A DNA stretch of 64,000 nt from a virus (taxonomy: Duplodnaviria > Caudoviricetes): IMG/VR virus record IMGVR_UViG_3300022719_000071, positions 224,001 to 288,000 of that record. The stretch is one strand, 5' to 3'. Both the position numbers and the translations under genes were made by a program. This document shows, in pieces, positions 25,174-58,223 of this stretch; the stretch's first letter is position 1, and each line of letters opens with the position of its first letter. The notes under the pieces are model-generated. The model had not been told where the DNA came from, searched no databases, and worked only from the letters and a program-made list of their open reading frames with translations.

Positions 25174-25299
25174 ATGAGCAAGTCCCGTACATCGCAACCG
25201 AGTGCCAAGGCAGCAGTCATGCGCCCTGCGTATCGTTCTCGGGTAGCTCGTGACAAGAGCAAATATCATCGCCCCTCAACAAAGCGTGAGGGCTACTGA
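25174..25299 (+). CDS. 41-aa basic peptide, ArfA-like
   Basis: GGAG RBS; MSKSRTSQPSAKAAVMRPAYRSRVARDKSKYHRPSTKREGY; below the ORF-track length cutoff. Confidence 0.45.
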   Translation: MSKSRTSQPSAKAAVMRPAYRSRVARDKSKYHRPSTKREGY

Positions 25300-25391
25300 T
25301 GAACAACATCACTTAAGGAATTAGACACAAGATTCAAGCGAATGTTGGAGGGAGCCGAAGAACTTCAAAAGAGCAAGGACACGGATGACCA

Positions 25392-25718
25392 ATGAAAATT
25401 AAAGTTTTATTCAATGATCACACTAAAAAGTACCGGATTTCTTACCAAACCGGACGGCTGTTCACTCGTTGGAAATTCGCACAGCGAGTTCTTGTCTCGT
25501 CTCAAGTCAGTCAAATCGGTATGGCCAAGTACGTGGAGTCTTCCATCGAGATCGCTGAGTTCGATTCCATAGGCGAGGCTGAGGAATTCATCGCCAAGCA
25601 CGTCGCCCCACAGAGCGAGTGGTACGATCCACGAAGTGATGCTTGGACCGTGGAGGCTGAGGTTGACATTCCTGGCAAGAAAGGGTATCATGTACCAACC
25701 TTAGAAATCGGAAAGTAA
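25392..25718 (+). CDS. Hypothetical protein
   Basis: ORF with host-like codon usage. Confidence 0.55.
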   Translation: MKIKVLFNDHTKKYRISYQTGRLFTRWKFAQRVLVSSQVSQIGMAKYVESSIEIAEFDSIGEAEEFIAKHVAPQSEWYDPRSDAWTVEAEVDIPGKKGYHVPTLEIGK

Positions 25719-25724
25719 AATCTG

Positions 25725-26834
25725 ATGCAAACATACCCGACCCTGTACTCTCGTGACACCATTGGCAACATCCGTGTCTGGTGGATGGAACGTGATGGTT
25801 TTCACTATCGCACCGCATCTGGTATCAAGGATGGAGAGATCGTGCATTCGGAGTGGCGTCGTGCGTACGTGACGAACCAAGGCAAGGCCAACGAACGTTC
25901 CGCCGAGATCCAAGCCGACGCCGAAATCAAATCGTCATACGACAAGAAGCTACGCATGAAGTACCACGAGGCTGAGGCTGACGTGGACAAGGACAAGTAT
26001 TTCAAGCCGATGCTCGCCAAGGAGTTCGGCAAGGAAACTTCCAAGAAGGGCGTTTCCTTCCCCGTGCACAGCCAACCGAAGCTGGATGGCATTCGTTGCC
26101 TTGTCACCGCCGAGGGTGCATGGTCCCGCACAGGCAAGCCTATTCTGGCGATTCCGCACATCCTGGAGGCCCTGGCTCCACTGTTTGCGAAAGACCCCGA
26201 TCTAGTACTCGACGGCGAGCTGTACAATCACGACCTGAAGGATGACTTTAATACCATCACGTCCGTGGTTCGCAAACTGGAGCCTAATCCCGAGCAGCTT
26301 GCTGATTCAGCACGCCTGATTCAGTATCACGTGTACGACTGTCCGTCCGTGGATGGATCATTTGAAATTCGCATTAATACTCTGGTTGCTCTGCTGATGA
26401 ACATGCCCGAGTGTGTCGTTCTGGTGGACACGCAGTTTGTGTTGGATCAGGAGACTCTGGATTTCTTGTACGCTGAGTACATGAAGAACGGCTACGAGGG
26501 ACAGATGGTGCGCCTGGGTGGAACCTACGAGCAGAAGCGCTCGAAGTTCCTATTGAAGCGCAAAGAGTTCAAGGATGCCGAGTTCGAGATCGTGGAGGTA
26601 AAGTCGGGGCAAGGGAATTGGGAAGGTTACGCCAAGACCCTGACCGTGCGTCTTCCTGACGGCAGAACGTGCGATTCGGGTATGCGTGGTAATCAGCAGT
26701 ACCTGAAGGAAGTACTGGAGAACGCTGACTCCTATGTCGGCAAGCAGGCGACCATTCGCTACCAGGATCTGACTCCGGACGGCAAGCTTAGGTTTCCTGT
26801 TGCCGTGGCGCTGCACCTGGAGGAGCGCTGGTGA
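25725..26834 (+). CDS. ATP-dependent DNA ligase
   Basis: Motif I QPKLDGIRC, VLDGELY, YEGQM, LLKRKE and C-terminal OB fold LRFPV. Confidence 0.92.
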   Translation: MQTYPTLYSRDTIGNIRVWWMERDGFHYRTASGIKDGEIVHSEWRRAYVTNQGKANERSAEIQADAEIKSSYDKKLRMKYHEAEADVDKDKYFKPMLAKEFGKETSKKGVSFPVHSQPKLDGIRCLVTAEGAWSRTGKPILAIPHILEALAPLFAKDPDLVLDGELYNHDLKDDFNTITSVVRKLEPNPEQLADSARLIQYHVYDCPSVDGSFEIRINTLVALLMNMPECVVLVDTQFVLDQETLDFLYAEYMKNGYEGQMVRLGGTYEQKRSKFLLKRKEFKDAEFEIVEVKSGQGNWEGYAKTLTVRLPDGRTCDSGMRGNQQYLKEVLENADSYVGKQATIRYQDLTPDGKLRFPVAVALHLEERW

Positions 26835-27022
26835 GCGAAATGAAGAAGCCTACTGACATCATTGTTGATATTCATCGTGAACTTGAGGCTCTTGCGGAGG
26901 CTGCTGTACAGGAACAGCATGCTGATGCCAGCCGTGTTGATAGCACACTCGACTACTACGAGGATGAATTTGCGAAATGGATCGTAGCCAAATTTAAGAA
27001 GGAAGTTCTAGATGAAAATTAA
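26831..27022 (+). CDS. Hypothetical protein
   Basis: GTGA overlap with the ligase gene. Confidence 0.5.
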   Translation: MSEMKKPTDIIVDIHRELEALAEAAVQEQHADASRVDSTLDYYEDEFAKWIVAKFKKEVLDEN

Positions 27023-27368
27023 GGTCTTTCTGGACGACGTGCGTAAGGAGCCTGTTGGATGGGTACGGGCGCACACGGCCCAGGACGCTATCGAGTGGCT
27101 TCAGGAGAGAGAGGTAAGCCACATCAGCCTGGACCATGACCTGGGTTCAGAAGAGGCTGGTACTGGCTACGACGTGTTGAAGTGGATTGAGAGGGAGGTC
27201 GCCATGGCTGGTTATGAGCCTCCGCACATGACCATTCATTCTGCCAATCCAGTGGGTCGTAAGCGCATGGAGATGGCGATCCAGAGCATCCTGCGTCTGT
27301 ATGAGGTAGCTAACATGGAGTACCAGGAGGATGGATATAGCGGCCCTGGTGAAGATAATTGGGACTAA
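27012..27368 (+). CDS. Cyclic-phosphate-processing receiver domain protein
   Basis: VFLDDVR, ISLDHDLG, TGYDVLKWIE and IHSANPVGRKRM motifs. Confidence 0.8.
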   Translation: MKIKVFLDDVRKEPVGWVRAHTAQDAIEWLQEREVSHISLDHDLGSEEAGTGYDVLKWIEREVAMAGYEPPHMTIHSANPVGRKRMEMAIQSILRLYEVANMEYQEDGYSGPGEDNWD

Positions 27369-27372
27369 CCTC

Positions 27373-27401
27373 TTGACTTCTTGTTGGGACAATGATAAAT
27401 A
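27373..27401 (+). promoter_or_regulatory. Composite promoter TTGACT-N17-TAAATA
   Basis: Same architecture as the 20345 promoter; precedes ncRNA A. Confidence 0.7.
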
Positions 27402-27407
27402 TAGACT

Positions 27408-27628
27408 GTGCATTGCTTAGTAGCGGTCTACCACGGGATACACCGGGAGGAGTGAACGCAGTGTGACCGAGTGTGAAGATTCAGACGGCGACCTGTGATG
27501 TGTCAATTCTAAGCAGGAAAGCCCTCTGACATAAGACGTTTGTATCGGATCACTTGAAGAATTGACTGTAACTCACGGCAGCCAGATAAAGGCAGGTTCG
27601 TGAGCGGTGGGATGGAAGTTCCCGCCTA
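27408..27628 (+). ncRNA. Candidate structured ncRNA A (unassigned)
   Basis: Non-coding; stems CATTGC/GCAGTG, GTAG/CTAC, GTCAATTCT/AGAATTGAC and CTCACG/CGTGAG. Confidence 0.55.
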
Positions 27629-27632
27629 TTAC

Positions 27633-27710
27633 GGTTGTGTAGCTCAATCTGGTTAGAGCACTCCCCTGTCACGGGAAAGGTTGAGGGTTCGAATCCCTTC
27701 ACGACCGCCA
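27633..27710 (+). tRNA. trnD: tRNA-Asp(GUC)
   Basis: Anticodon loop CTGTCAC; TTCGAAT T-loop; CCA end. Confidence 0.9.
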
Positions 27711-27831
27711 ATTTAGAGAAACACATCGCCTGTCTGAGCTTTGTGTGGGGACCATACCACTAGGTTGATAGTGGACAGACCGAGACCACGGGCTTATGTC
27801 ACGTGGGATGCAATGGAAGTTTGCAATTAAT

Positions 27832-27910
27832 GGCCCGTTAGCATAGTCTGTCCTAATGCGCCAGCTTGTCACGCTGGAGATCAAGGGTTAGAATCCCTTA
27901 CGGGTCGCCA
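27832..27910 (+). tRNA. trnD: tRNA-Asp(GUC), second copy
   Basis: CCAGC-TTGTCAC-GCTGG; variant T-loop TTAGAAT; CCA end. Confidence 0.88.
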
Positions 27911-27946
27911 AGTTTTTGGCCAACATGGAAGTTCCTTGTCAACGTG

Positions 27947-28073
27947 GTATCAGCGTAAATGACGGGTCGGCCAAGGGGAGTTGTGTGACTTCACTCTCGC
28001 CAAACTCTCTGGAAGGAGAGCTAATATTAAAAGGCCGAAAAGTGATACTGGAGTTCTGTGATTGAATACTCCA
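27947..28073 (+). ncRNA. Candidate structured ncRNA E (unassigned)
   Basis: Nested stems GTATCA/TGATAC, TCGGCC/GGCCGA, GAGT/ACTC, CTCTC/GAGAG, then TGGAGT/ACTCCA. Confidence 0.45.
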
Positions 28074-28080
28074 TTTAACC

Positions 28081-28188
28081 ATGGTTTTGTTTGTGAAGTT
28101 CGATCACCCGGTGCCTGGGGTTACAAGGCTGATTATGGTTTTGTTTGTGAAATTCGATCACCCGGTGCCTGGGGTTACAAGGCTGATT
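28081..28188. repeat. 54-bp tandem duplication (2 copies, 1 mismatch)
   Basis: ATGGTTTTGTTTGTGAA(G/A)TTCGATCACCCGGTGCCTGGGGTTACAAGGCTGATT twice. Confidence 0.95.
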
Positions 28189-28287
28189 TTTGCTTTAAAA
28201 TAGATATTATTTTATTATAAAAGTCACCGTGACTGCGACTGGATGAGGAAGCCATTTCGCAGATTCCTATGGAAGTTGGGTAAGTTT

Positions 28288-28364
28288 CAGGGTATAGCTC
28301 AGACTGGTAGAGCGCTCGTTTCGGATACGAGAGGCCGCAGGTTCAAATCCTGCTACCCTGACCA
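28288..28364 (+). tRNA. trnP: tRNA-Pro(CGG)
   Basis: CTCGT-TTCGGAT-ACGAG; CCA end. Confidence 0.9.
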
Positions 28365-28402
28365 CGACATGGCGTAGCTCAGTCTGGTTTCTAGGTGGAT
28401 TA

Positions 28403-29236
28403 TTACGGGAAGATTCCGAATGCACCAGCGTTATAGTGATTTAAAACCTCTGTTGGTGTGAGCACACGATCATAGATAGCAAGTTCATCCACAATACCTT
28501 CTAGTGCTGTAGCAGGCTGTGGTCCCTGCAACGATCCATTGTTATATTCGTTTCCAATCAAACCTCCTGGTGCTTGACCGGAGACTGGTGTGTATTTAAT
28601 ATCACCAGTCTTGGTATCACTGGCGTCGAGTACTCCGTTGACGTAGAGAATACGACTTCCAGAGGTATATGTTCCAACCACGTGATATATTGAGCCTGCC
28701 GGAAAGACATTTCCTTGAAGGTAAGCATTACCTGCGGTGTTTTGGTTAGGACCATCAACGGTACCGAGATAGAAACGGAATGTACCAACGTTAAATCCGT
28801 AAATTAATTTGTATCCAGAGAAATCCAAAGTGCTCCCTGAAGCGTATTGAATGAGCGCTTCGTTCACATTGGGTGGTTTACACCAACATTCGATGGAAAC
28901 CGTCTTGGTTGGTTCCAAGATGGAACTCTGACCAAAGTTCCAATGGTCTGCTAGGGCGTTGTTACCCCCGACTGCTCCATCATTATCTGAAGCACCAGAA
29001 ATTAATCCAGGCTCACCGTAACGCATAGGAGCACCATTCTCAGTAGCTGTGAAACCATTACCCGAAGAATCAGCCAAAGTAGGACCAGAAGATTCACCAG
29101 CACGCCAGTAAGCAATTGGACCATCTTGTAGAATCAGAGATTCATAGGTCATTGGGCCGGATGGACCCAAACTGAGTATACCGCCGTTACTGACAATAAT
29201 TGAAGAACCGTTTTCGATTATAATTATTCCAGACAT
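28403..29236 (-). CDS. LamG/concanavalin A-like lectin domain virion protein
   Basis: PIAYWR.GE..G.T.ADSSG, SIECW, HVVGTY, LYVNG and GIVDELAIYDRVLT motifs; TAAATA on the minus strand upstream of ATG 29236. Confidence 0.85.
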   Translation of the reverse strand: MSGIIIIENGSSIIVSNGGILSLGPSGPMTYESLILQDGPIAYWRAGESSGPTLADSSGNGFTATENGAPMRYGEPGLISGASDNDGAVGGNNALADHWNFGQSSILEPTKTVSIECWCKPPNVNEALIQYASGSTLDFSGYKLIYGFNVGTFRFYLGTVDGPNQNTAGNAYLQGNVFPAGSIYHVVGTYTSGSRILYVNGVLDASDTKTGDIKYTPVSGQAPGGLIGNEYNNGSLQGPQPATALEGIVDELAIYDRVLTPTEVLNHYNAGAFGIFP

Positions 29237-29298
29237 TTGAAATTTCCAAGTTCTTTTGTTATATTTACTGTTCCATCTTAACAACTCGGTCATTAGTC

Positions 29299-29733
29299 AT
29301 GCAAAACCCAGATCCTCATAATCGAGGCATGGAAGCTGTCAAGCTTGCTCATCAATACACCTGGAGACAACAGAAGAGGCTGTTCCCGGTTACTGTTGGC
29401 ATCCTGACATGGATGATGGGATACAGCTTGCTGACGTTCAGCTTTTTCCCTCTGTTTCAACTCAACATCCTTTCGTGGGTAATACTTATGGCCATTATGT
29501 TTTTGACCAGGAAAAAACTGAACGAAGAATTTCTTGAATACTTGAAATGCCAGAGAATTGGAAAAGAGATGGACTGGAAGACGGTCGTCTATAACGGATG
29601 GTTGAACTATGCTGCCACGCTAATCTGCCTGTATTGGGTTTTGATGATCGCTTGGATTTCGTTCTTTATGCCGGAAGGTGGAATCTATGAACTTTACGAG
29701 ATGGATCCCACCAACAAACCCTTGACTTCCTAA
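29299..29733 (+). CDS. Hypothetical membrane protein
   Basis: Three to four hydrophobic segments. Confidence 0.6.
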   Translation: MQNPDPHNRGMEAVKLAHQYTWRQQKRLFPVTVGILTWMMGYSLLTFSFFPLFQLNILSWVILMAIMFLTRKKLNEEFLEYLKCQRIGKEMDWKTVVYNGWLNYAATLICLYWVLMIAWISFFMPEGGIYELYEMDPTNKPLTS

Positions 29734-29752
29734 CCCTAACTACCTATAAATA
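29722..29752 (+). promoter_or_regulatory. Composite promoter TTGACT-N17-TATAAATA
   Basis: Exact architecture match to the other RNA-island promoters. Confidence 0.75.
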
Positions 29753-29948
29753 CAACATGCAACGACGGTATCCTGTCGCATTGTGTTTACCATCATAAAG
29801 TGTGCACACTTTATTGATGAGAATGAGGCTTTTTATGTGAGATTTTGCGCCTCGTGTTATGGACATAATAAGTTTGTCATAGCACACCAGACATTGAATC
29901 TGGGTAAGCAGCAACCTATTCATTCATTAATGGGAATGAAGTTGTACC

Positions 29949-30022
29949 AGCTTAATGGTGGAATGGTTAGACACATCTGGTTTAAAACTAGACACATTGC
30001 AGGTTCGAATCCTGCTTAAGCA
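29949..30022 (+). tRNA. Atypical or degenerate tRNA-Leu(UAA)
   Basis: Leu-type D-arm; TCTGG-TTTAAAA-CTAGA; good T-arm, but 6-bp acceptor, short variable loop and no CCA. Confidence 0.5.
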
Positions 30023-30102
30023 ATTGGATAAATCATCACCGTGACTGCGATGGAGGATACATACGCAGATATCGATGGAAGTTCGATAAAATTGCAGACA
30101 CT

Positions 30103-30181
30103 CAGGGTATAGCTCAGTCTGGTCAGAGCGCTGGTCTTGGGAACCAGAGGTCCGCAGGTTCGAATCCTGCTACCCTGACCA
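30103..30181 (+). tRNA. trnP: tRNA-Pro(UGG)
   Basis: CTGGT-CTTGGGA-ACCAG; CCA end. Confidence 0.92.
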
Positions 30182-30314
30182 AATCTTGTACTAAATGCTT
30201 ACAAGAAAAGTCGTTAACCGAATTTCCGGATTAGGAGTCGATCCAAAGGGACTTATCAATCATGGTGTAATCGGCACATATTCAGAACTCATGGATATTC
30301 AACGGGAGATCCGA

Positions 30315-30659
30315 ATGAACATTTCAATGCTACTCAGGGCACTCCTGGGCGCACTGCTTCTAACGACAATGTCCGTTCAAGCGGACGAGCCCAAGACACT
30401 TCATCAATACCTTCTGGTGTCCGAGGTTGACTTCGTTCTAAATCATAGCACTCGTGTGCTCATCGTATTAAGTCCTGGAACCACAGGATGGACAACTCCA
30501 ACAGAAGCTTGTGCTGGCGTATCAAAGTTTGATACGATTGTTCGTAAGGTCGTCTTCACCGACGCCAGCACTACAACAGTTTCTACAGATCTTGTTTGGA
30601 ATTCTGACACACGAACCCTAACCAATCTTGGTGGCCGTAATGAAGCTACCTGCAACTAA
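30315..30659 (+). CDS. Secreted hypothetical protein
   Basis: Signal-peptide-like MLLRALLGALLLTTMSVQA|DE; GGGAG RBS. Confidence 0.6.
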   Translation: MNISMLLRALLGALLLTTMSVQADEPKTLHQYLLVSEVDFVLNHSTRVLIVLSPGTTGWTTPTEACAGVSKFDTIVRKVVFTDASTTTVSTDLVWNSDTRTLTNLGGRNEATCN

Positions 30660-30669
30660 GGACCAACAC

Positions 30670-31053
30670 ATGAAACTTCAAGTATTGGCAGCCGCAGCAC
30701 TAGCGGCAACAGCATTCGTCGCATCGGCTGGTGAATACCGCAACGACTATTCACGTGGCGACATGGGAATGGGTTCCGGAAACACCCAGACTATTACCAT
30801 CACCGGGAACGGTGATGGTGGCGTTACAGTCCGTCCGATTTCCTCGTTCATTCTTCCGATTTCCCCGTTCATCCTCTCCAACCCTCGTCAGGCATGCCGT
30901 TACCCAAGCAATCTGTATCGAGCTGGCGATCATTGCCTCGTTCCAGGTGAACCAGAGGCACCGAAGACTGCGCCTGTAAAGGTAGAAGAGCCTCATCCTC
31001 CTGTAGTGGAACCGCTCATCCCTGTCGCCCCTGTAAAGCCTGAGAACGGCTAA
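30670..31053 (+). CDS. Secreted Pro-rich hypothetical protein
   Basis: AAGGA RBS; signal peptide MKLQVLAAAALAATAFVASA; Pro-rich tail. Confidence 0.65.
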   Translation: MKLQVLAAAALAATAFVASAGEYRNDYSRGDMGMGSGNTQTITITGNGDGGVTVRPISSFILPISPFILSNPRQACRYPSNLYRAGDHCLVPGEPEAPKTAPVKVEEPHPPVVEPLIPVAPVKPENG

Positions 31054-31062
31054 GGATGTGTT

Positions 31063-31827
31063 ATGCGGGCGCTGTTGGCTTTAGTGCTTCTCCTTAAGTG
31101 CGTCGAAGTAGCTGGCAGCGTACAGTTCCACGAGCGACCGGAGGTTAGGGAACACCTGACCTCCGGTCCTGTAATCATTGTAAACATACCAGAATTCAAG
31201 CTTAGACTCTATCGTGATGGAGAGCTTCAGCTTGAGTCTCGTGTTATCCTCGGCAAAGAAACTAGACAGACACCCGAGATGGTGGCCGAGATCCAGCACG
31301 TCATACTGAACCCGTACTGGAACATTTCGAACAAATTGGCTCGTGCCGATATCCTACCTCGATACGTGAAAGACCCCAAGCGTCTTGAGAGAGATGGATA
31401 CCAACTAGTCAGTGGGTGGAACCCTGACTCCAGAGTAGTCGATCCACTGAAGGTTGACATCGGGGCTTGCGTAAGGACCGGAGACTGTTCTTTCAGAATC
31501 CGACAAACACCAGGGGATCATAATTTCCTTGGTGCTGTGAAATTCTCCATGCCAAACCCCTACAACGTGTACATCCATGATACACCAGCCAAGCATCTTT
31601 TCTCAAGAAAGAAAAGAACCTTCAGTTCCGGTTGCATTCGTACTGACTCTCCGATTGAGTTAGCTATTCATTTATTGGGGAAATCGAGAGCCGATGTAGA
31701 ATCGAGAATTGCATCTGGGACTCGACAGGAAATCTACCTAGAAACTCCAGTTAAGGTGGTGGTCGTAAACATCATGACGCCCGATGGAATACCCGTGTAC
31801 CCGACCAAAATGGTGTACGATCAATGA
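31063..31827 (+). CDS. L,D-transpeptidase (YkuD domain, YcbB/LdtD-like)
   Basis: VNIPEFKL, VILGKETRQTP, NPYWN, PGDHNFLGAVKF and YIHDTP...SSGCIR catalytic His/Cys. Confidence 0.88.
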   Translation: MRALLALVLLLKCVEVAGSVQFHERPEVREHLTSGPVIIVNIPEFKLRLYRDGELQLESRVILGKETRQTPEMVAEIQHVILNPYWNISNKLARADILPRYVKDPKRLERDGYQLVSGWNPDSRVVDPLKVDIGACVRTGDCSFRIRQTPGDHNFLGAVKFSMPNPYNVYIHDTPAKHLFSRKKRTFSSGCIRTDSPIELAIHLLGKSRADVESRIASGTRQEIYLETPVKVVVVNIMTPDGIPVYPTKMVYDQ

Positions 31828-32333
31828 TACACATTCGACCAGCGAAGAAGTTTGAGCGCAAGAATATTGTAGAACTTGCGAGTGAGCAATTCGGTGATGG
31901 CTACCTCGTCCGAAAGGAACTAGACATCGACCGGTACATCGTACTGTACGTTGATGACGATTTCTCTGGTTTTGTGAATACTGACTTCTACTCAAAAGAG
32001 GAGTGGGACGAGCCGGGTAATGAGGGTGCTGGAATGATTGAGACCATTGCTGTTAAGACAGCATACCAACGTCTTGGATTGGGTACGGCGCTCATCGGAG
32101 TAGCCAAGGCTGACTTAATCCTAGGTGGCGCAACGGCCATCTATTGCTACGCTGCCAATTGGTCCGACCTCGATGGGTTTGCTCCGGTTGCCTCGCCACT
32201 ACAGAACAATGGCTTTAAGGTGAAGGACTTTCTACCCAGGATGTGGAAGGATGACCCACCCGGCTACAAGTGCCGTGCCTGTGGGTATCCATGTAATTGT
32301 GATGCTACTCTGTACGTTTGGAAGCGAGGCTAA
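31824..32333 (+). CDS. GNAT acetyltransferase with Cys-rich C-terminus
   Basis: IAVKTAYQRLGLGTAL acetyl-CoA motif; CRACGYPCNC. Confidence 0.8.
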   Translation: MIHIRPAKKFERKNIVELASEQFGDGYLVRKELDIDRYIVLYVDDDFSGFVNTDFYSKEEWDEPGNEGAGMIETIAVKTAYQRLGLGTALIGVAKADLILGGATAIYCYAANWSDLDGFAPVASPLQNNGFKVKDFLPRMWKDDPPGYKCRACGYPCNCDATLYVWKRG

Positions 32334-32356
32334 ATACATTTAATTGGGGAATGTAA

Positions 32357-49814: not shown

Positions 49815-49821
49815 ACAATAA

Positions 49822-49912
49822 GGAAGGGCTACCGGATAGGAGACCGGCGCAGTCTTGAAAACTGTTTGAGCCAGCAACGGCTTTGTGGGTTCGAATCCCA
49901 CCCCTTCCGCCA
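49822..49912 (+). tRNA. trnS: tRNA-Ser(UGA)
   Basis: GCAGT-CTTGAAA-ACTGT; long variable arm; CCA end. Confidence 0.92.
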
Positions 49913-50000
49913 GATGACTTTCATAGAAGTAACTCGTTGACAAGCTGAACAAGCGTTACTACATTCAAATTGCATTGCGAACGTGACTTGAGCAACGGTA

Positions 50001-50588: not shown

Positions 50589-51022
50589 GACATATACTAG
50601 CACTGATACTACTAGCTGCATTTTGTATTCCAGCACAAGCTGATGAACCAAATCTCACAGTCTACGCATTAGGCAATAATCGATGCGAAGGATGTGGAGA
50701 ATTCTCTTTGTTCGTGGGTCGCTTCTACGACGAAACGAAGTGGGCAAAGCTAGCCAAACTGGAGCGTGTGACCATAGACCAAAGAACTCCGCAATTAATC
50801 CCGTCCTGGTACAAAGAAGCATTTCTGGATGGCAGAACTTCGAAACCAGGACATCTACCGATGTTCATGATTTGGGCCAAAACAACCAAGTATCCAGAGA
50901 AAGGACGTGAGATCGGTCGGTTCTATGGATTCGAAGGTGGAGCCGGTGAATGGTACATCAACCTCGAACTTATGTTGGATGCTATCACGACACGGATGAA
51001 GGATGGGGTTTTTCAAGAATGA
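50585..51022 (+). CDS. Secreted thioredoxin-like protein
   Basis: Signal peptide; CEGC (CxxC) after a beta strand; LP.F and REIGRFYGF. Confidence 0.65.
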   Translation: MRHILALILLAAFCIPAQADEPNLTVYALGNNRCEGCGEFSLFVGRFYDETKWAKLAKLERVTIDQRTPQLIPSWYKEAFLDGRTSKPGHLPMFMIWAKTTKYPEKGREIGRFYGFEGGAGEWYINLELMLDAITTRMKDGVFQE

Positions 51023-51474
51023 GTGATGAGCTAAATCTGGAAATTCTTCCAGATAGCGATCCACGACTGCATACTAAGAGCGAGGTCGTGAACATTTACA
51101 AAGAGCCAGATCTTCGAGCTATCATCGAAGAGATGTTCCGTTTGATGCTGAAGCATGATGGCATGGGTCTTGCTGCGCCACAGGTTGGTATCAACAAGCG
51201 ATTCTTCATCATGTTTCATGAGAACAAGCTACACGTATGCATCAACCCATCCATTATCAAGAAAGCACGGGAACTTGAAGTGGACAGAGAAGGGTGTTTG
51301 TCGTTCCCTGGTTTGACCCTAAATATCCAAAGGCCCAAAGATGTCCGTGTAGCTTTTCAGGACATCTTGGGTCACCGACAGAAGAAAAAGTTCACTGGCA
51401 TCTTAGCCCGATGCTTTCAGCATGAACTCGATCATCTGAACGGCATTGTTTTCACGGAGAAAGCGAACGAGTAA
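51019..51474 (+). CDS. def: Peptide deformylase
   Basis: GMGLAAPQVG, EGCLS and QHELDHLNG motifs. Confidence 0.96.
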   Translation: MSDELNLEILPDSDPRLHTKSEVVNIYKEPDLRAIIEEMFRLMLKHDGMGLAAPQVGINKRFFIMFHENKLHVCINPSIIKKARELEVDREGCLSFPGLTLNIQRPKDVRVAFQDILGHRQKKKFTGILARCFQHELDHLNGIVFTEKANE

Positions 51475-51475
51475 A

Positions 51476-51796
51476 ATGGCTGTGTTCAATATCATAGATG
51501 GACGAACTAATGAATTTAATCCCAACTGTGATGTTGTCTTCGAAGTTTTCGCTGATGATTGGACAGACTACAACCTTCCCGCTAACACAAAAGACTTCAC
51601 CGAATGGGTTACAAACACTAGTATCTACAGCGCACTCATGGTTGGAATGAAGTTCTCTGGATGTGTTACGATCTACTTCTATGACGAAGGTATGGTACCT
51701 CGTGATCATGGATACCTTGCCGCCGTTCATCCCAAGCTCAAGAAACATCAACTGAACATGGTACGGTATGATCCAAAGCTATTGAGAAACTATTGA
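51476..51796 (+). CDS. Hypothetical protein
   Basis: ORF 1 nt after the def stop. Confidence 0.55.
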   Translation: MAVFNIIDGRTNEFNPNCDVVFEVFADDWTDYNLPANTKDFTEWVTNTSIYSALMVGMKFSGCVTIYFYDEGMVPRDHGYLAAVHPKLKKHQLNMVRYDPKLLRNY

Positions 51797-52083
51797 TGCT
51801 AACGAAAGTCGAAGTTCATAACGACTGGATGTTCATCGACTCTGTAGCAGAGAGTATCGAAGATTGCCTGGACAACGATTGGGCCTCGGAAGGAGTTGAT
51901 TACACCTGGGTAAACCCTAAAGTTCTACGATTGTTGATTCCTCCGAAGGTATCCTATGCCGAGGTAATCGAGGACATTAGTAGACTAATAGTTCAACACC
52001 AGGATTCTATGACCTTCATTCCCATTCGACTCATTCGACCTTTTTCCATCCAACCCCTTGACATCCTACCCCTGGAATGGTAA
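51793..52083 (+). CDS. Hypothetical protein
   Basis: Coupled ORF. Confidence 0.5.
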   Translation: MMLTKVEVHNDWMFIDSVAESIEDCLDNDWASEGVDYTWVNPKVLRLLIPPKVSYAEVIEDISRLIVQHQDSMTFIPIRLIRPFSIQPLDILPLEW

Positions 52084-52089
52084 ATTACC

Positions 52090-52480
52090 CACGTCGCTCG
52101 GGACAATAACTCTCCTGGGATGACACATAGATTAACCTAGACACGTAGATTAACTTAGACAAAGATATTAACGGAGACAAAGAGAAACACGACCGGAAAC
52201 ATTGAATTCAAAGCGGTCTCCTATGCGTAGATGATTGGGTAGAGACCGGCCCGTAGAAAATGACAAACAGGTGTTTCCAACAAGGTCGTACCCCGCAATG
52301 GGAGGAGTGGGTGAGGAAGCCGGGGGGGTAAAACCCCCGGCGACCTCTAACTGAAACGAAACAGGCAAAAAGCCAAAGGAGGACGCCTTCTAAACGCAAA
52401 GCAACGTGAAAGCCGTTATTTTGATTAAAGAAGTTGTTTGAAACAGGTGAAGCCGGGGGGTAAAACCCCCGGTGGATCCA
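52090..52480 (+). other. Non-coding element D: 18-bp tandem repeats plus two copies of a G/C hairpin (ncRNA or origin candidate)
   Basis: GACACATAGATTAACCTA-like units at 52122, 52140 and 52158; GAAGCCGGGGGG(G)TAAAACCCCCGG at about 52316 and 52449; stems ACGACC/GGTCGT, GGAAACA/TGTTTCC, GGTCTC/GAGACC. Confidence 0.55.
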
Positions 52481-52484
52481 AACC

Positions 52485-52515
52485 TTGACTTTTGAATGAG
52501 AAGGTACTATAAATA
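52485..52515 (+). promoter_or_regulatory. Composite promoter TTGACT-N17-TATAAATA
   Basis: Precedes the largest tRNA array. Confidence 0.78.
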
Positions 52516-52697
52516 CTACCATGAACATTCGACGCCACAAATTTCATAATAACCGCATTAGCATCAGCTAAGCCACGGCATCGTCTTGCCCTGGCTCAGC
52601 GAAGTCGGGGAAAGCCCTCACCAACCTCCCTCCCAGACTATAAACCCAACATGGTGACCCCTTTCCGGGGGTAACAGAGTGGTGATGACATAACAAT

Positions 52698-52774
52698 GTC
52701 CCTGTAGCTCAACTGGACAGAGCACCGGTCTACGAAACCGAAGGTTAGAGGTTCGAATCCTCTCAGGGATGCCA
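52698..52774 (+). tRNA. trnR: tRNA-Arg(ACG)
   Basis: Anticodon loop CTACGAA; CCA end. Confidence 0.92.
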
Positions 52775-52783
52775 AGAGAAAAG

Positions 52784-52861
52784 CCTGGGGTGGCTCGTCT
52801 GGTAGAAGGCACCCGCCTGATAAGCGGGTACAGGAAGGTTCGATTCCTTCCCCCAGGACCA
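52784..52861 (+). tRNA. trnI: tRNA-Ile(GAU)
   Basis: CCCGC-CTGATAA-GCGGG; CCA end. Confidence 0.9.
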
Positions 52862-52992
52862 AACAAGCATTGCTTGAACTGGGGTTGAAAGTAGGCAAGG
52901 TAAGTGATCATAGCCGTGCTGAGGATAGACCGGGGAATGACCCTCGTTGCAGAGTCGGCGTTGGAAGTACAGAGCCCCCACCCAAGCATTAT

Positions 52993-53069
52993 GCCTCCGT
53001 AGCTCAGTTGTATAGAGCGTCTGGCTTCGAACCAGAAGGTCGTGGGTTAGAGTCCTACCGGGGGTGCCA
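52993..53069 (+). tRNA. trnR: tRNA-Arg(UCG)
   Basis: TCTGG-CTTCGAA-CCAGA; variant T-loop TTAGAGT; CCA end. Confidence 0.88.
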
Positions 53070-53127
53070 AAACGGCAGGGAACGTCGCCGTAAACAAGAC
53101 GTGACAAGCGGGAGAGACCGCAGCAAT

Positions 53128-53202
53128 GGTGAAGTTAAGATAGCGGTTAATCCTCCGCACTGTGACTGCGGCTACACCGGTTCGAATCCGGTACTTCACC
53201 CC
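53128..53202 (+). tRNA. trnH: tRNA-His(GUG)
   Basis: CCGCA-CTGTGAC-TGCGG; encoded G-1:C73; CCA incomplete (CCG). Confidence 0.85.
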
Positions 53203-53208
53203 GAATTT

Positions 53209-53247
53209 GGGATTGTAGCAAATGTTGGCTTGCTCCCGGCTCTTAAC
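53209..53247 (+). pseudogene. 5' half of a tRNA-Lys(CUU)
   Basis: GGGATTG-TAGCAA..TTGCT-CCCGG-CTCTTAA-C, after which homology stops. Confidence 0.6.
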
Positions 53248-53333
53248 TAGTAAACAGTTTAAGACACAGAGGAATTCGATAGATACAAACGCCAGAGACG
53301 AATAATCGTTCCTGGGAAACAAGTAATAGAAAT

Positions 53334-53409
53334 GGACTCGTAGCTCAATTGGCAGAGCACCCGGCTCTTAACCCGGGGGTTGCAGGATCGTTGCCTGCCG
53401 AGTCCACCA
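53334..53409 (+). tRNA. trnK: tRNA-Lys(CUU), copy 1
   Basis: Loop CTCTTAA; C.C mismatch in the anticodon stem; T-loop ATCGTTG; CCA end. Confidence 0.85.
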
Positions 53410-53414
53410 AACAT

Positions 53415-53489
53415 GGCTCTGTAGCTGAGATGGATTAGCGCCTGTCTGAAGAACAGGAGAGGTTGGTTCGATTCCAACCGGAGCCACCA
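53415..53489 (+). tRNA. trnF: tRNA-Phe(GAA)
   Basis: CCTGT-CTGAAGA-ACAGG; CCA end. Confidence 0.92.
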
Positions 53490-53494
53490 AACAT

Positions 53495-53563
53495 GGGTCG
53501 ATTGTGACTGATTATCGTTCTCACAAGGCCGTGGTCGTGGGTTAGAGTCCCACCTTACCTCTA
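53495..53563 (+). pseudogene. Degenerate tRNA, possibly Val(CAC)
   Basis: Intact T-arm GTGGG-TTAGAGT-CCCAC and loop CTCACAA; broken D and acceptor stems. Confidence 0.4.
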
Positions 53564-53623
53564 CAATGGGTAAGGTAGATCACGTAAAAACGTCGGTTAC
53601 GCCCACTTATCCGTGTTTGATTT

Positions 53624-53699
53624 GGGTCCATAGCTCAATTGGCAGAGCTGCTGACTCTTAATCAGTAGGTTGGAGGTTCGAGTCCTCCTGGACCCACCA
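53624..53699 (+). tRNA. trnK: tRNA-Lys(CUU), copy 2
   Basis: GCTGA-CTCTTAA-TCAGT; CCA end. Confidence 0.92.
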
Positions 53700-53751
53700 A
53701 GGAGATGCAATGCTGACTTGATCAATTGGCACTCGGTTATGCAGTGACGAT

Positions 53752-53868
53752 GGGATCGTAGTTCAACGGTAGAATACTGGACTTTTACACTTCGGGGTGG
53801 CAAATTTAATTGGATGCGGCTCCGTCTAATCCAGGAGATGTGGGTTCGAATCCACGCCGGTCCCACCA
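53752..53868 (+). tRNA. trnK: tRNA-Lys(UUU) interrupted by a 41-nt anticodon-loop insertion (53788-53828)
   Basis: Acceptor GGGATCG/CGGTCCC-A-CCA; anticodon stem CTGGA/TCCAG; loop CTTTTA|insert|A. Confidence 0.8.
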
Positions 53869-53870
53869 AA

Positions 53871-54130
53871 GCTCAATGGGCAAAGTCATGAGACACTAGT
53901 AGGAAACTGCCCGAGAAGCGTATGTGAGTCGTAGCGGTCTCTACGAACAAGCGAGTTGCGCTTGACTTACAATGGTGAACGTAATATGATTTACTTGAAC
54001 AGAATTCGAGCACGCTGAGGTAACATTCAAGCAGGATGTAGAGAAGAAGTTCTACGGTAAGTGCCGCTGTCCTGAAGCTCACATTCCAACCGAGAGGGTA
54101 ATGAAGACGTTGTGTGAGAAGCACAACCTT
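53871..54130 (+). ncRNA. Candidate structured ncRNA B (unassigned)
   Basis: Stems GGGCA/TGCCC, CGTAG/CTACG, CAAGCG/CGCTTG, CTTGAA/TTCAAG, CAGGA/TCCTG, ATGTGAG/CTCACAT and GTTGTG/CACAAC; no credible ORF. Confidence 0.5.
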
Positions 54131-54142
54131 TAGGAGAGAACG

Positions 54143-54541
54143 ATGGCAAAGAAGACTGTCCGTAGAAAGGCTACCGATCCAAAGATGCTTACCATCAGGA
54201 AGGACATCGATCTCAGCCATTTGAATTCCAGTCCGTTATCCCACGTCATCAAAACACTTCAGGAACTTGCGGACAGCGAGGGTTGCGATCCGGACTTGTC
54301 TCACGTAGAGTTTGAATACGAGCGTGGATACTACGATGAGTTATCCATAACACTAATGGTGCACGCAGTACACGAAAGATTGGAAACTGAGAAGGAAGTG
54401 GAGAAGCGGATCGAACAGGCACGCAAGACTCGTGAGAGTAGGAAGAGAGCCAAGGAGGAGCAAAAGGCCAAGGAGATCATGGAACGTGATCGACTACTGG
54501 AAAGGTATCCATTGGACACTGTGCCACCTGTGATGGACTAA
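54143..54541 (+). CDS. Hypothetical protein with charged coiled-coil C-terminus
   Basis: AGGAG RBS. Confidence 0.65.
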   Translation: MAKKTVRRKATDPKMLTIRKDIDLSHLNSSPLSHVIKTLQELADSEGCDPDLSHVEFEYERGYYDELSITLMVHAVHERLETEKEVEKRIEQARKTRESRKRAKEEQKAKEIMERDRLLERYPLDTVPPVMD

Positions 54542-54575
54542 TAAATATACATCACACGAATAGGAGGAACCCAGA

Positions 54576-54739
54576 ATGGGAAGTACACGATTACAGATTA
54601 TCTCTGGTGTCTCCTGTTCCACAGGAAGTACCACCGTCGTATTGTATATCATATAATGCCCGGGAAAAAGCTTCGAGTGAGTGAGTGCAAGAAATGTCAT
54701 GCACAGTTCTTGCGTGAACGAGTTGAAGATGTAATCTAA
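54576..54739 (+). pseudogene. Small Cys/His-rich ORF with a 1-nt frameshift at codons 2-3
   Basis: AGGAGG RBS and ATGGGAAG; the shifted frame reads KYTITDYLWCLLFHRKYH...ECKKCH. Confidence 0.45.
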
Positions 54740-54777
54740 TGCGGTGAAAGCATTTAAGTAATTATAAATACAACTGA

Positions 54778-54851
54778 AGGAAGGTAACTCAGTCGGTCAG
54801 AGTTCTCGTCTTATAAGCGAGCGGTCGTGGGTTCGAGTCCCACCCTTCCTA
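54778..54851 (+). tRNA. trnI: tRNA-Ile(UAU)
   Basis: CTCGT-CTTATAA-GCGAG; AGGAAGG/CCTTCCT acceptor; no encoded CCA; TATAAATA just upstream. Confidence 0.85.
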
Positions 54852-54947
54852 CTATTATACTGATTTGCATTCACTCATTTATTTGGGTTCGACTCCTCGG
54901 GGGGCGTACCACTTGACTGAAGCAATGGAAAAACATATCTTCACGAT

Positions 54948-55199
54948 ATGATAGTCATCAAAATAGAACTGTGGCCTTTAGGATTTGAGTCCCGCAAAAA
55001 GGAACTTGGTCGCATGCACATCATCAACAAGGGCAGTGGGTCACTGATTCGTGGTGACTATAGTGTCAAGGTGATGAGGCGTGGCACCAAAGATAAGGTT
55101 CAGCGAACTGGTGAGGTTACCAGCTATCCTCGTGAATCCTATAGCGTATGGCGTCTTGTCATGCGTGCTTTGAAATCAGCATTCCCGGAAGAGAAATGA
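54948..55199 (+). CDS. Hypothetical protein
   Basis: MIVIKIELWP...GDY, a recurring small phage protein pattern. Confidence 0.6.
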   Translation: MIVIKIELWPLGFESRKKELGRMHIINKGSGSLIRGDYSVKVMRRGTKDKVQRTGEVTSYPRESYSVWRLVMRALKSAFPEEK

Positions 55200-55513
55200 G
55201 CAAAGAAATAACCCGAGTAGAACTACCCGTAGGTAATTACCGGCTGAGTCGTGAAAGAGATGGTGCTGGAGATTCTGGTCTATTCTTGGAAGCGTTCGAT
55301 TGGGACAACCCAACCGCCGATCACGAGAAAAGAGTAATCGAGGTTGGAAAGGGTGTTCGTTGCGGATCGTTGTATACCAGAACGATGCAAGAACAGGATT
55401 GGTGGTTGACCACTGCTGTCAAGGAAATTTTGGAAGTTTCCGATGATGGGAAGATGGTCAAGTTCCTAACCGAAAGCCGAAACAACAGCACATATATCGT
55501 AACGGTAACCTAA
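55196..55513 (+). CDS. Hypothetical protein
   Basis: ATGA coupling; WLTTAVKEILE...FLTE..NSTY. Confidence 0.6.
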   Translation: MSKEITRVELPVGNYRLSRERDGAGDSGLFLEAFDWDNPTADHEKRVIEVGKGVRCGSLYTRTMQEQDWWLTTAVKEILEVSDDGKMVKFLTESRNNSTYIVTVT

Positions 55514-55701
55514 GATTTACGAGATCGACGAAAAGTACACTACCCAGACTTGTTCGAGTTGCGGAGTGATATCTGACAACAGTTCGAAAGGTAGAGCAGG
55601 TTTAGGAATAAGAGAATGGACCTGTTGTTGTGGAGCGTTGCACTGGCAGTGCTCTGGGCACTGGAGAACGGATACATTATTAACGTAGGAGGATAGACAT
55701 C

Positions 55702-55806
55702 ATGCCAGCACGTGTAGGACTCAAGCCCCGGCATCACGGTCGTCGCAAGAAGGGTTCTCGCAAGCGCCGTCGCAACAGCGCTGCCGCCCGCAAGCGGGGT
55801 CGTTAA
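55702..55806 (+). CDS. 34-aa protamine-like basic peptide
   Basis: AGGAGG RBS; MPARVGLKPRHHGRRKKGSRKRRRNSAAARKRGR. Confidence 0.6.
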   Translation: MPARVGLKPRHHGRRKKGSRKRRRNSAAARKRGR

Positions 55807-55972
55807 GCCAACCGAGATTTTACGAGTTCTCGTAGTAGAACGCATTCGGCTTCGAGGGCTCGTAATCTCCGATTCTCTTTTTCAAGTTCCTTTACTTTCC
55901 TATCGAGTGAATTCCGCTCCGATAAGCATTCCCTGAGTATAGCACCGATTCTTCGCAGACGTTCGTTTTTTG

Positions 55973-57505
55973 TCATTGCGTGTTGCTGCCTGGATCGAAC
56001 CCGGTAACGTGCATTAGGTCTTCCCCGTCAAATTGCGTTAACGGGTGATCTTCTATTGGTACACCATAACCCCCACGTGTACCTCTGCCGATCACGCTAG
56101 CGCTTGCGGTCAGAGGCTCTTCACGCATGCTCTGAAGAGCTTGTACTACGATCTTGTAGATCTTCTTCAAAAACTCCTGACGATATGCATCCGGATTGGT
56201 GGCGATGTGTGTAATTACCAGCATACGCAATACTACATCACGTATCTCTGGTGCACGCTTTTCGTAATCCGCATTTCCAATAGCACGAAACTCGATGTAA
56301 CCAGAAGGCAGTGTGGAAAAGTTGACGGAGTAGGACTTACCGTGTGGGTTGATTTTATCCAGTAGCTTGGTCATTCGTTGGAAGTCGCTTTGGTCAATAT
56401 GAACATGAGATATCAACTTTTGCGTGAACTTGACCAACACTCCAGTAGAATCTGATGATATCGTCTGTAGCTTGCCAGCACGATGAATGCGCTTCTTCAA
56501 TTCACGAAGAGTTGGCTCGGAGAACTCATTCATCTCACGACCGAACTTCTTCACGATGTGCTGGTCTCCGAGAAGAACCAGCATTTTCAGCGCATCAATT
56601 TGCTTGCCCTTGACTCCAATGTTGATGTGCAGTCCTGTATCCATTGTAGTAGCAACATTCAAACCTATGATCTTGCCATTCATGATTTGCAAGAAGTTCA
56701 TCAACTGGTCAACTCCCTCCTGAGCCTGGAAAATTGGAGAAATTGTTTCTACGCCAGCAGCACCGGATTTTGCAGTTTCATCAGCTAGAGATGCATCGTA
56801 TGTAACCGCCCAATTTTGATACTTTTGTGATAGTTCGTATGTTCTAGTTTCATCAGCAGTAGAAACCACATTGCCACTGACTTTTCCCTGAAGGTCTCTA
56901 GCAACCATGTGGTACAAAACATCTTGAGTAGCTATATTCATCGCAAGGTCATACTCCTCTTTCTCGAAGCCAACAGTAGACGTGGAAAACTCCAAATCGT
57001 TTAGCTTTCCGAACGGAGTAATCTCTTTCACATCACCATCATACACAATGTCCTCTAAAGCTTCTTCTTTGCGAGGATCAATGTTCAGGATTCTATCTTT
57101 AGGAAAAGCACGAAGCATTGCCATAAGCTGATGCATTCGATACTTCTCCTTCAAGGAATCCCAAATAGCAGCCGTAGACGTAAACGTTCCATCACCACCA
57201 GTCTCTTGTTCGTACAACTGAATTAGTCTTTCTTGAAGGATTTCGTGGTTGTCTTTTAGATTGTCGCTATCTACACTAAGAGGAACCCAAAAATGGAGCA
57301 GGTCTGAATAGGTTGTGTCACCGATTTTCCTAGTATGGTAATTTCCGTCCGGTGTTTGTCCCATGCCCTGAGTCAGATAGCTCTGAATAGCTTTCTGAGC
57401 CCCGATAAGGAAATACTCAGCCTCGAAGCCGAGTGTCATACCTGGGTCGTTTAGGGCTGCATTGATGAGCCTCTGACTGGCTTTTACGCCTTCGGTGATT
57501 TGCAT
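55973..57505 (-). CDS. Amidoligase_2 (COOH-NH2 ligase type 2) family protein, probably virion-packaged
   Basis: TLGFEAE, VTYDASL, GVETISP, TGLHINIG, KSYSVN and YIEFR motifs; TAAATA and GAGGA before MQITE|G. Confidence 0.75.
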   Translation of the reverse strand: MQITEGVKASQRLINAALNDPGMTLGFEAEYFLIGAQKAIQSYLTQGMGQTPDGNYHTRKIGDTTYSDLLHFWVPLSVDSDNLKDNHEILQERLIQLYEQETGGDGTFTSTAAIWDSLKEKYRMHQLMAMLRAFPKDRILNIDPRKEEALEDIVYDGDVKEITPFGKLNDLEFSTSTVGFEKEEYDLAMNIATQDVLYHMVARDLQGKVSGNVVSTADETRTYELSQKYQNWAVTYDASLADETAKSGAAGVETISPIFQAQEGVDQLMNFLQIMNGKIIGLNVATTMDTGLHINIGVKGKQIDALKMLVLLGDQHIVKKFGREMNEFSEPTLRELKKRIHRAGKLQTISSDSTGVLVKFTQKLISHVHIDQSDFQRMTKLLDKINPHGKSYSVNFSTLPSGYIEFRAIGNADYEKRAPEIRDVVLRMLVITHIATNPDAYRQEFLKKIYKIVVQALQSMREEPLTASASVIGRGTRGGYGVPIEDHPLTQFDGEDLMHVTGFDPGSNTQ

Positions 57506-57554
57506 GGGATATCCTCTTGACCTGTCAATATTTACTCCGTACATTGGAAGCACC

Positions 57555-57741
57555 ATGAAATACAAATTCAAGTCGGTCCTGGTTGTATCCCATTCGAAAG
57601 ATGAGGAAACCTACCCCACGAGGAATGGGCGCATCTAACCAACGCTCAAGTTCAAGAGCTATATCAAGAAACCTATGATCGATGGAACTTTGAGACTGGA
57701 ACGAAAGACGACCTTATCTTGATGAAGAGACTGGAGTATGA
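57555..57741 (+). pseudogene. Small ORF with a 1-nt deletion in a C run
   Basis: MKYKFKSVLVVSHSKDEETYP continues in the shifted frame as HEEWAHLTNAQVQELYQETYDRWNF. Confidence 0.4.
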
Positions 57742-57821
57742 GCTATATGGTCGTAACTACACGGTCGTTCAGCCAAAGCTTTGGCCGAAAAACTCAATGA
57801 GGAAGTCTTGAGGATGTTCAC

Positions 57822-58223
57822 ATGCCCAAAGAATTAATCTGGTCAGCAACCAAGAAAGACTTTCATGTGGACTGGTTCTCTGGAACTGGTGCCGGTGGCC
57901 AATATCGAAGTAAGCATCAGAACTGTTGTCGTATCACCCACATTGAATCCGGTCTGGTTGCTACCGGACAAGATCATCGTGACCGACCATCTAATCAAAG
58001 GGATGCATTCAACAAGCTGGCGGAAATGCTGGTTGATTACTATAAGCTACGTGACTCTAGGATACAAGTTGAGATTAGCAACGAAACTATTCGTACTTAC
58101 CATGAACCACGCAACGACGTGAAAGACCACGCTTCTAATCTTCGTCAAGAATACAAGTACGTGGTGGAAGCAGCAAATATTGGAGAGATGATCGAAGAAC
58201 GAATGAAGACTAGGGAGAAATAA
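57822..58223 (+). CDS. Minimal class I release-factor-like peptidyl-tRNA hydrolase (GGQ domain)
   Basis: FSGTGAGGQYRSKHQNCCRITH and IRTYHEPRNDVKDH; no codon-recognition domain. Confidence 0.85.
   Translation: MPKELIWSATKKDFHVDWFSGTGAGGQYRSKHQNCCRITHIESGLVATGQDHRDRPSNQRDAFNKLAEMLVDYYKLRDSRIQVEISNETIRTYHEPRNDVKDHASNLRQEYKYVVEAANIGEMIEERMKTREK

Follow-up and report, generated by a model that had tools for sequence, protein, structure and literature searches.

An ArfA-like peptide and a minimal release factor as separate candidate ribosome-rescue genes of an uncultivated tailed phage

Bacteria cannot do without the rescue of stalled ribosomes, and phages provoke stalling through the degradation of host mRNA and through triggered host nucleases which cut tRNA and mRNA. 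Among the described rescue factors is the alternative ribosome-rescue factor ArfA, which is YhdL of Pfam family PF03889, represented by PDB entries 5MGP, 5MDV, 5U4I and 5H5U and occurring in beta- and gammaproteobacteria. Here, an ArfA-like peptide encoded by a 41-codon gene (25174..25302, + strand) is described together with a 133-amino acid (aa) minimal release factor (mini-RF; 57822..58223, + strand) and a peptide deformylase, def (51019..51474, + strand), of a tailed phage (Duplodnaviria; Caudoviricetes) from IMG/VR record IMGVR_UViG_3300022719_000071. Coordinates refer to the window, i.e. the whole 64,000-nucleotide (nt) stretch of DNA that was analysed, which corresponds to bases 224001-288000 of this 360,469-bp record, itself estimated to be 91% complete. 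The favoured reading, to which a probability of roughly 0.55 is given, is that the phage encodes an ArfA-like peptide using a host release factor (RF), an independent minimal hydrolase and an ordinary deformylase, and that these do not constitute one machine.

ArfA binds and activates RF2 through its residues 15-31, with F25 placed in the V198/F217 pocket and a β-strand extending β4-β5 of RF2, and its KGKGS tail lies in the mRNA channel, none of the KGKGS residues being individually essential; mature ArfA is 52-55 aa in length (PMC6299226). The added strand comprises Q27-E30, and the A18T substitution blocks activation (PMC8012679). The phage peptide is likewise small and basic, and it covers the equivalent of ArfA residues 1-51. 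In profile-profile comparison using hhalign, the peptide family (alignment A5, 23 sequences) matched ArfA (alignment A4, 25 sequences) at 96.7% with an E-value of 4.3e-10 over 39 columns, and at 95.8% in a separate run, with peptide residues 5-41 aligned to E. coli ArfA residues 10-51 and a single three-residue gap at GKG. The residues paired in this alignment are, from ArfA to peptide, A18-A13, P23-P18, F25-Y20, R26-R21, R28-R23, V29-V24, Y39-Y31 and R41-R33, and all eight on the peptide side are among the columns best conserved within the phage family. The ArfA strand QRVE (Q27-E30) is aligned with SRVA (S22-A25) of the peptide, and the segment equivalent to ArfA 15-31, which binds and activates RF2, is kept in this alignment. 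Column-shuffled controls scored 18.4 or less in 199 of 200 cases, as compared with 44-47 for the real alignment. Judged by profile-profile comparison, the peptide family is remotely homologous to ArfA.

The peptide open reading frame (ORF) runs from an ATG at 25174 to a TGA at 25297-25299, includes AKAAVMRPAYRSRVARDKSKYHR and is directly followed by a second TGA. A Shine-Dalgarno (SD)-like GGAG (25161..25164, + strand), read from the sequence, lies 9 nt 5' of the ATG, and GAGGA or GGAGG is found 6-10 nt 5' of the ATG in most of the relatives. These relatives were recovered at several levels of sensitivity: a word-indexed protein search returned only P0001 of contig L123 (76% identity), HMMER run exhaustively with a two-sequence profile against 1.84 billion representatives returned 12 proteins at E<=1e-3, all of 39-101 aa, and a pattern scan placed relatives in 14 viral contigs. 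Between L123 and the window, the DNA is similar from 1 nt ahead of the ATG to a point within the ORF, the flanking genes being different, and dN/dS between the two coding sequences is about 0.25. Another relative, P0124 of contig L246, is preceded by genes encoding 180, 150, 108 and 176 aa, as compared with 180, 150, 106 and 175 aa in the window, and is taken to be the syntenic orthologue of the peptide because these gene sizes mirror each other. Between the two orthologues, synonymous change is saturated, with differences at 21.5 of 25.7 synonymous sites (pS 0.84), as against 7.5 of 82.3 non-synonymous sites (pN 0.09). Together, the relatives, purifying selection, synteny and SD sites identify the 41-codon ORF as a genuine gene. 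The region was also considered as a structured RNA, which was rejected on the basis of a fold z of -0.5, the lack of an Rfam match and codon-wise substitutions. The DNA of the peptide region had no match in five related jumbo phages, loci anchored on the DNA ligase gene were too distant for synteny to be compared at the peptide, a PHROGs search with the peptide was empty, and cultured phages searched by tblastn with the peptide or its relative P0128 gave nothing meaningful.

A promoter-like TTGACT-17-TAAGTT (25118..25146, + strand), identified by reading of the sequence and by a pattern scan, is situated 27 nt upstream of the peptide ATG, with a TG one base ahead of the -10 hexamer. It is regarded as a predicted promoter and as a lead, not as proof, the pattern being loose, with 12 matches on the + strand of the window and 33 (+) vs 30 (-) in the genome. 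The relative in contig L123 is preceded by TTGACA-17-TATAGT, which ends 7 nt before its ATG.

The relationship to ArfA was further explored using an ArfA set gathered from 80 enterobacterial loci, 37 matches in 401 Pseudomonadota genomes and two divergent ArfA, from which the ORFs were extracted. An unfiltered ArfA hidden Markov model (HMM) built here scored the peptide at 15.6 bits, a value reached by none of 20,000 composition-preserving shuffles (maximum 14.6), and its relatives at up to 27.6 bits. When this HMM was run against the 6,440 stop-to-stop phage ORFs of at least 30 aa, the peptide was the sole match (16.1 bits, E 0.0025; next ORF 7.0 bits), and the objection that the ORF was picked for its ArfA look is therefore answered. 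Short-type bacterial ArfA, with the pattern MSKK..PNKAKS[IL][IV]AQPLFRSRQE.., share the MSKK N-terminus of the peptide and are closer to it than E. coli ArfA is, the elements common to short-type divergent bacterial ArfA and the peptide being MSKK...AK..V..P.[FY]RSR. Likewise, a protein from a metagenome-assembled genome named ArfA by NCBI (..AKRAVMTPKFRSRIAKAKKGKGSY) is far closer to the phage peptide than is E. coli ArfA. From the phage side, P0128 and P0133 match the Pfam ArfA model at 5e-4 and 3e-3, respectively, below threshold, and P0128 bridges the two families in having RVEKNKK..Y.RK.KH in common with E. coli ArfA. A word-indexed protein search from the divergent bacterial ArfA L208 returned only itself. 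The nearest Atlas clusters to the peptide include both DUF7230 and ArfA, which is a lead only. DUF7230 (PF23876) comprises uncharacterised small basic proteins, and five peptide relatives score against it over the stretch YR.RV.RDK.KY.RK, but all of these scores are under the cut-off and the window peptide itself gives no match.

Several observations weigh against an assignment of the peptide to ArfA. The Pfam ArfA model gave no match to the peptide at E<=1 and none in all six frames of the phage at E<=10, as compared with 4.7e-25 for the E. coli control, and NCBIfam and PDB sequence searches with the peptide were empty. K34, G35, K36, G37 and S38 are invariant in 25/25 aligned ArfA, and the peptide lacks KGKGS, with the three-residue gap at this position and only the equivalents of Y39 and R41 kept. 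Its basic tail is three residues shorter and less basic than that of ArfA, and the KH motif, which P0125, P0128 and P0129 keep, is absent from it. Some relatives have acidic or hydrophobic C-terminal extensions which ArfA biology does not explain, and one of the shuffled controls gave an aberrant score of 130.9 over 12 columns with a similarity of 0.12, which is read as a numerical artefact. The initial annotation had described the peptide as ArfA-like and had proposed an HMM search against ArfA; this search was negative with the Pfam model and positive only with the unfiltered model of diverse ArfA and in profile-profile comparison. The peptide is accordingly classed as a divergent ArfA relative and, under the curated definition, not as a member, because it falls below the Pfam threshold, is devoid of KGKGS and ends in tandem stops. 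A shortened, divergent member of the ArfA lineage would be the best explanation of these sequence features.

Further differences from ArfA are that the peptide is phage-encoded and has no hydrophobic C-terminus. A hairpin or non-stop mRNA arrangement with a hydrophobic C-terminus was not found at this locus, where the ORF ends in TGA TGA and the RNA structure z is -0.5; hydrophobic C-termini, as in full-length E. coli ArfA, are present in P0124 and in an ORF of phage G002. A sub-family in viral contigs L256-L266 (MK.TAKSMVMKPEFRSRVVKDKTKYDR..) is extended at the C-terminus by a long acidic stretch with YQNGYWE at its end.

The mini-RF consists of the RF domain 3 (GGQ) and domain 4, and a GAGGA precedes the ATG of its gene by 8 nt. 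The match of the protein to PF00472 has an E-value of 1.5e-15 (57.6 bits, cut-off 35), with GGQ at residues 25-27 and IRTYHEPRNDVKDH at residues 90-103. The NCBIfam RF1 model is matched only at positions 212-341 of 347 (49.8 bits, cut-off 400), as is the last third of the RF2 model, and the family profile corresponds to RF2 235-362 of 365 and RF1 190-319 of 333 with an E-value of 6e-20. The N-terminus of the protein corresponds to RF2 235, and the codon-recognition domains 1 and 2 (PCRF, PxT/SPF) are missing. Its AlphaFold2 (AF2) model, with a mean predicted local distance difference test (pLDDT) score of 85.9, gave ribosome-bound RF1/RF2 as best Foldseek matches (TMq 0.6-0.67). On the basis of sequence and model, the mini-RF is composed of RF domain 3, a shortened α7/switch region and domain 4, without domains 1-2. 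An alignment of 38 sequences (A6) shows no variation in GGQ and in another 19 columns. A conserved Cys-Cys (NCCRITH) is found at residues 35-36 of the mini-RF, where RF1/RF2 have SAVRITH.

Mini-RF relatives of 120-150 aa number 539, with 41 viral loci, and the corresponding Atlas clusters are 91-100% viral; no strong match (E<=1e-28) was obtained in the 401 Pseudomonadota genomes, and no close full-length match in cultured phages. As judged from these searches, the mini-RF family is large and virus-specific. None of its neighbours is conserved across the 41 loci, the next most common family being present in 6. tRNA genes occur within 5 kb of the mini-RF in 14 of these loci, and in several the mini-RF gene lies inside a tRNA array. 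Stop-codon recoding was rejected as a reason for a phage-borne RF, TAA, TGA and TAG being used normally (116, 104 and 25 long ORFs, respectively). RtcB, Pth and tmRNA were each searched across the phage and not found, nor was a second RF-1 domain besides the mini-RF. A PrmC-like methylase for the GGQ motif was also rejected, the phage having two weak MTS matches which NCBIfam did not confirm.

Compared with described release and rescue factors, the mini-RF corresponds to the last ~130 residues of RF1/RF2 but lacks their domains 1-2, the PxT/SPF reader and the β4-β5 surface, in addition to having NCCRITH in place of SAVRITH. ArfB (YaeJ)/ICT1 and mtRF-R (C12orf65) are, as predicted for the mini-RF, stand-alone GGQ hydrolases independent of a stop codon; however, ArfB has a basic C-terminal helix and mtRF-R needs a partner, whereas the mini-RF ends in RF domain 4 without an ArfB-type basic tail. 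The NCBIfam ArfB model (NF006718) gave 15.7 bits vs a cut-off of 100 (E 0.009) over a partial stretch, and the match of the family profile to mtRF-R (E 2e-12) takes in the GGQ domain together with the helix after it. PrfH (RF-H) of the PrfH-RtcB2 system is also a truncated release-factor homologue, used against ribosome damage, and is matched by the family profile at E 8e-10 and by the mini-RF itself at 2e-7 (TIGR03072; 30.5 bits, cut-off 166.65). PrfH, however, has retained a module resembling domain 2 and has RtcB2 as its partner, whereas the phage lacks RtcB and the mini-RF has no conserved neighbour.

The third gene, def, encodes a 151-aa deformylase without a long C-terminal helix, which matches PF01327 at 9.3e-47 (159 bits), phrog_2890 at 3.6e-41 and NCBIfam NF001159 with 138.8 bits (cut-off 125). 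All catalytic motifs are present, namely GLAAPQ (GxGxAAxQ), EGCLS and HELDH (HExxH), and the start of the gene overlaps the upstream stop as ATGA, from which def is predicted to be translationally coupled to the upstream gene. It belongs to the same family as the phage deformylases of PHROG 2890, which have this PHROG to themselves, shares their short C-terminus and shows no notable difference from them, and by these matches def is an ordinary phage deformylase.

From these features, we infer ribosome binding, the release-factor partner and catalysis as follows. Early in infection, the peptide would bind ribosomes with an empty mRNA channel, stalled on cut mRNA, and would recruit a host class-I release factor, probably RF2, leading to release of the peptide chain. 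Its helix (A13) would touch the decoding centre, Y20 would plug into RF2 and the SRVA strand would pair with RF2. The conserved part of the peptide is exactly the RF2-contacting segment, from which a full-length host release factor would be its partner. Since the gene ends in ordinary stops, with no non-stop mRNA, the peptide would be produced irrespective of tmRNA activity, and a phage ArfA-type peptide outside tmRNA control would be an example of ribosome recycling being taken over by phages. Separately, the mini-RF would act on ribosomes as a codon-independent, stand-alone GGQ peptidyl-tRNA hydrolase, which raises the question of how the catalytic and C-terminal domains alone are aimed at, and restrained on, the ribosome.

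The initial annotation had pointed to the unannotated 41-aa ORF at 25174, to a 133-aa GGQ protein devoid of both the stop-codon domain and the ArfB tail, and to def at 51019. All three are borne out here, the ORF as a conserved, translated-looking gene by its relatives and pS/pN, the GGQ protein by its NCBIfam RF1/ArfB matches and family profile, and def by its PF01327 match and a score above the NCBIfam cut-off. It had also suggested that they may form one system, perhaps with the peptide supplying in trans the sensor that the mini-RF lacks, and this part of the proposal is not supported. The peptide gene lies 26 kb from def and 32 kb from the mini-RF gene, def and the mini-RF gene are 7 kb apart, and each of the three has its own expression signals. 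Out of 16 phage records with a mini-RF, the peptide profile finds a weak match in only two, namely G557, where the ORF is ArfA-like and contains GKGSY, and G002, where it resembles DUF7230, and the profile matches none of the nine records (0/9) that are at least 90% complete; conversely, an RF-1 domain is found in 0/5 viral contigs with the peptide, two of which are complete. A two-piece phage rescue factor, in which the peptide serves as the sensor of an empty mRNA channel and places or activates the sensor-less mini-RF, would account for the presence of both genes in this phage and for the ArfA/DUF7230-type small ORFs in G557 and G002, and it would fit a mini-RF in which no other sensor is visible and which keeps domain 4, i.e. 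half of the II/IV superdomain extended by the ArfA strand (PMC8012679). It is nevertheless very improbable, since the ArfA docking surface on RF2 (β4-β5 and the V198/F217 pocket) is in domain 2 (PMC6299226), outside the RF2 235-362 covered by the mini-RF, and since spacing, co-occurrence and the 41 loci without a conserved neighbour all speak against it. Hardly any credence is given to a host-independent version of this arrangement, in which the peptide would sit in the vacant mRNA channel and lend its conserved strand to the orphan sheet of mini-RF domain 4, thereby replacing domain 2 and switching on a release factor without codon reading; if true, such a split release system would differ from both ArfA-RF2 and ArfB as a rescue factor in two pieces. 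Most likely, the peptide, mini-RF and def are three separate genes which mostly do not travel together.

Taken on its own, the peptide could be an ArfA-derived ribosome binder employed for interference, which, by taking up the decoding centre or the RF2 site, blocks host ArfA/tmRNA rescue or otherwise biases translation. The absence of KGKGS and KH, with part of the channel-binding tail gone, and the sub-family with long acidic tails, which are unlikely to lie in an RNA channel, are in line with such a role, and ArfA(A18T) provides an example of binding without activation (PMC8012679). An interfering peptide is considered unlikely, though, as the RF2-activating residues A13, Y20, R21, R23 and V24 are the best conserved, the KGKGS residues are individually dispensable in ArfA and the peptide, in spanning the ArfA 1-51 equivalent, has about the length of mature ArfA (PMC6299226). 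It is distinctly unlikely that the ArfA likeness is convergent or compositional and that the peptide is an unrelated small basic protein without a rescue role, for example a DUF7230-type nucleic-acid binder: the match is position-specific and is reproduced by neither sequence shuffles nor column shuffles, it involves 39 ordered columns with a single three-residue gap, and P0128 bridges the phage family to E. coli ArfA. On the other side stand the failure of curated ArfA models to detect the peptide, the sub-threshold DUF7230 scores of five relatives, the short, basic, low-complexity nature of these proteins, which inflates profile scores, and the view that ArfA, BrfA and ArfT are independent in origin (PMC8012679). 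As regards the mini-RF, action on split 50S-peptidyl-tRNA in the manner of mtRF-R, instead of on 70S non-stop complexes, would be compatible with its profile match to C12orf65 and with the lack of an mRNA-channel tail or codon reader, but is a minor possibility given that the protein is closer to RF1/RF2, keeps domain 4 to its C-terminus and has no MTRES1-like or RqcP-like partner conserved beside it. An ArfA-like peptide acting through the host release factor, alongside an independent mini-RF, remains the preferred interpretation.

ArfA-type peptides are also carried by cultured phages, including Pseudoalteromonas phage J2-1, in which the gene is annotated as 'alternative ribosome-rescue factor A', Salmonella phage Arash and Pseudomonas phage pf16. 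Unlike the peptide described here, these are found by tblastn with E. coli ArfA (42-63% identity). By sequence, canonical ArfA are already present in cultured phages. No close cultured relative of the present phage was found, and cultured phages gave no match to the region in a DNA search at near-identity. In the literature collection that was searched, phage-encoded ArfA was not the subject of any paper, nor was there experimental work on the peptide or mini-RF family, and Burroughs and Aravind (2019) make no mention of phage versions. The peptide widens the ArfA lineage beyond the reach of curated models, and the peptide and mini-RF genes are small and easily tested in E. coli and in reconstituted translation.

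Next on the 3' side of the peptide gene come a 108-aa ORF, an ATP-dependent DNA ligase gene (25725-26834, + strand; PF01068, PF14743), a 62-aa ORF, a gene for a cREC_REC cyclic-phosphate-processing receiver-domain protein (27012-27368, + strand; PF20274, 1e-29) and tRNA genes from 27633, 25 tRNA genes being present in the window. Contig L123, which holds P0001, also has a homologue of the 62-aa ORF. These surroundings may fit a region concerned with damaged RNA and RNA-end repair. Past the tandem stops of the peptide gene (25297-25394), the frame stays open for 31 codons (chance about 0.2) and ends as an ATGA overlap with an ORF at 25392; it may be left over from a once longer gene, the P0001 and P0124 ORFs being longer. 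On the 5' side, two adjacent small hydrophobic ORFs of 68 and 65 aa (24707-24913 and 24913-25110) with a common W.QHF.FA motif sit between the 175-aa gene and the peptide gene, a position at which L246 has no called genes. In L246 (3810-3882), a sequence resembling a tRNA 3' end (GGTTCGAGTCCCACC...) occurs ~30 nt before the peptide gene and looks like a further link of these peptides to tRNA genes. Beside the mini-RF gene, a 532-aa Amidoligase_2 protein is encoded divergently (55973-57571, - strand) and a NUDIX hydrolase is encoded downstream of the mini-RF gene (59072-59602, - strand), neither of which is conserved beside the mini-RF elsewhere.

An Rfam tRNA match extends over 114 nt at 53752-53865 (45.5 bits) and was not called by ARAGORN, and is possibly an intron-bearing or otherwise odd tRNA. 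At 53334-53409, ARAGORN predicts a tRNA with a four-base anticodon (ctta). The sequence at 49822-49908 passes the Rfam tRNA-Sec model (53.1 bits, gathering score 47) and is called tRNA-Ser(TGA) by ARAGORN; it is most likely a long-arm Ser tRNA.

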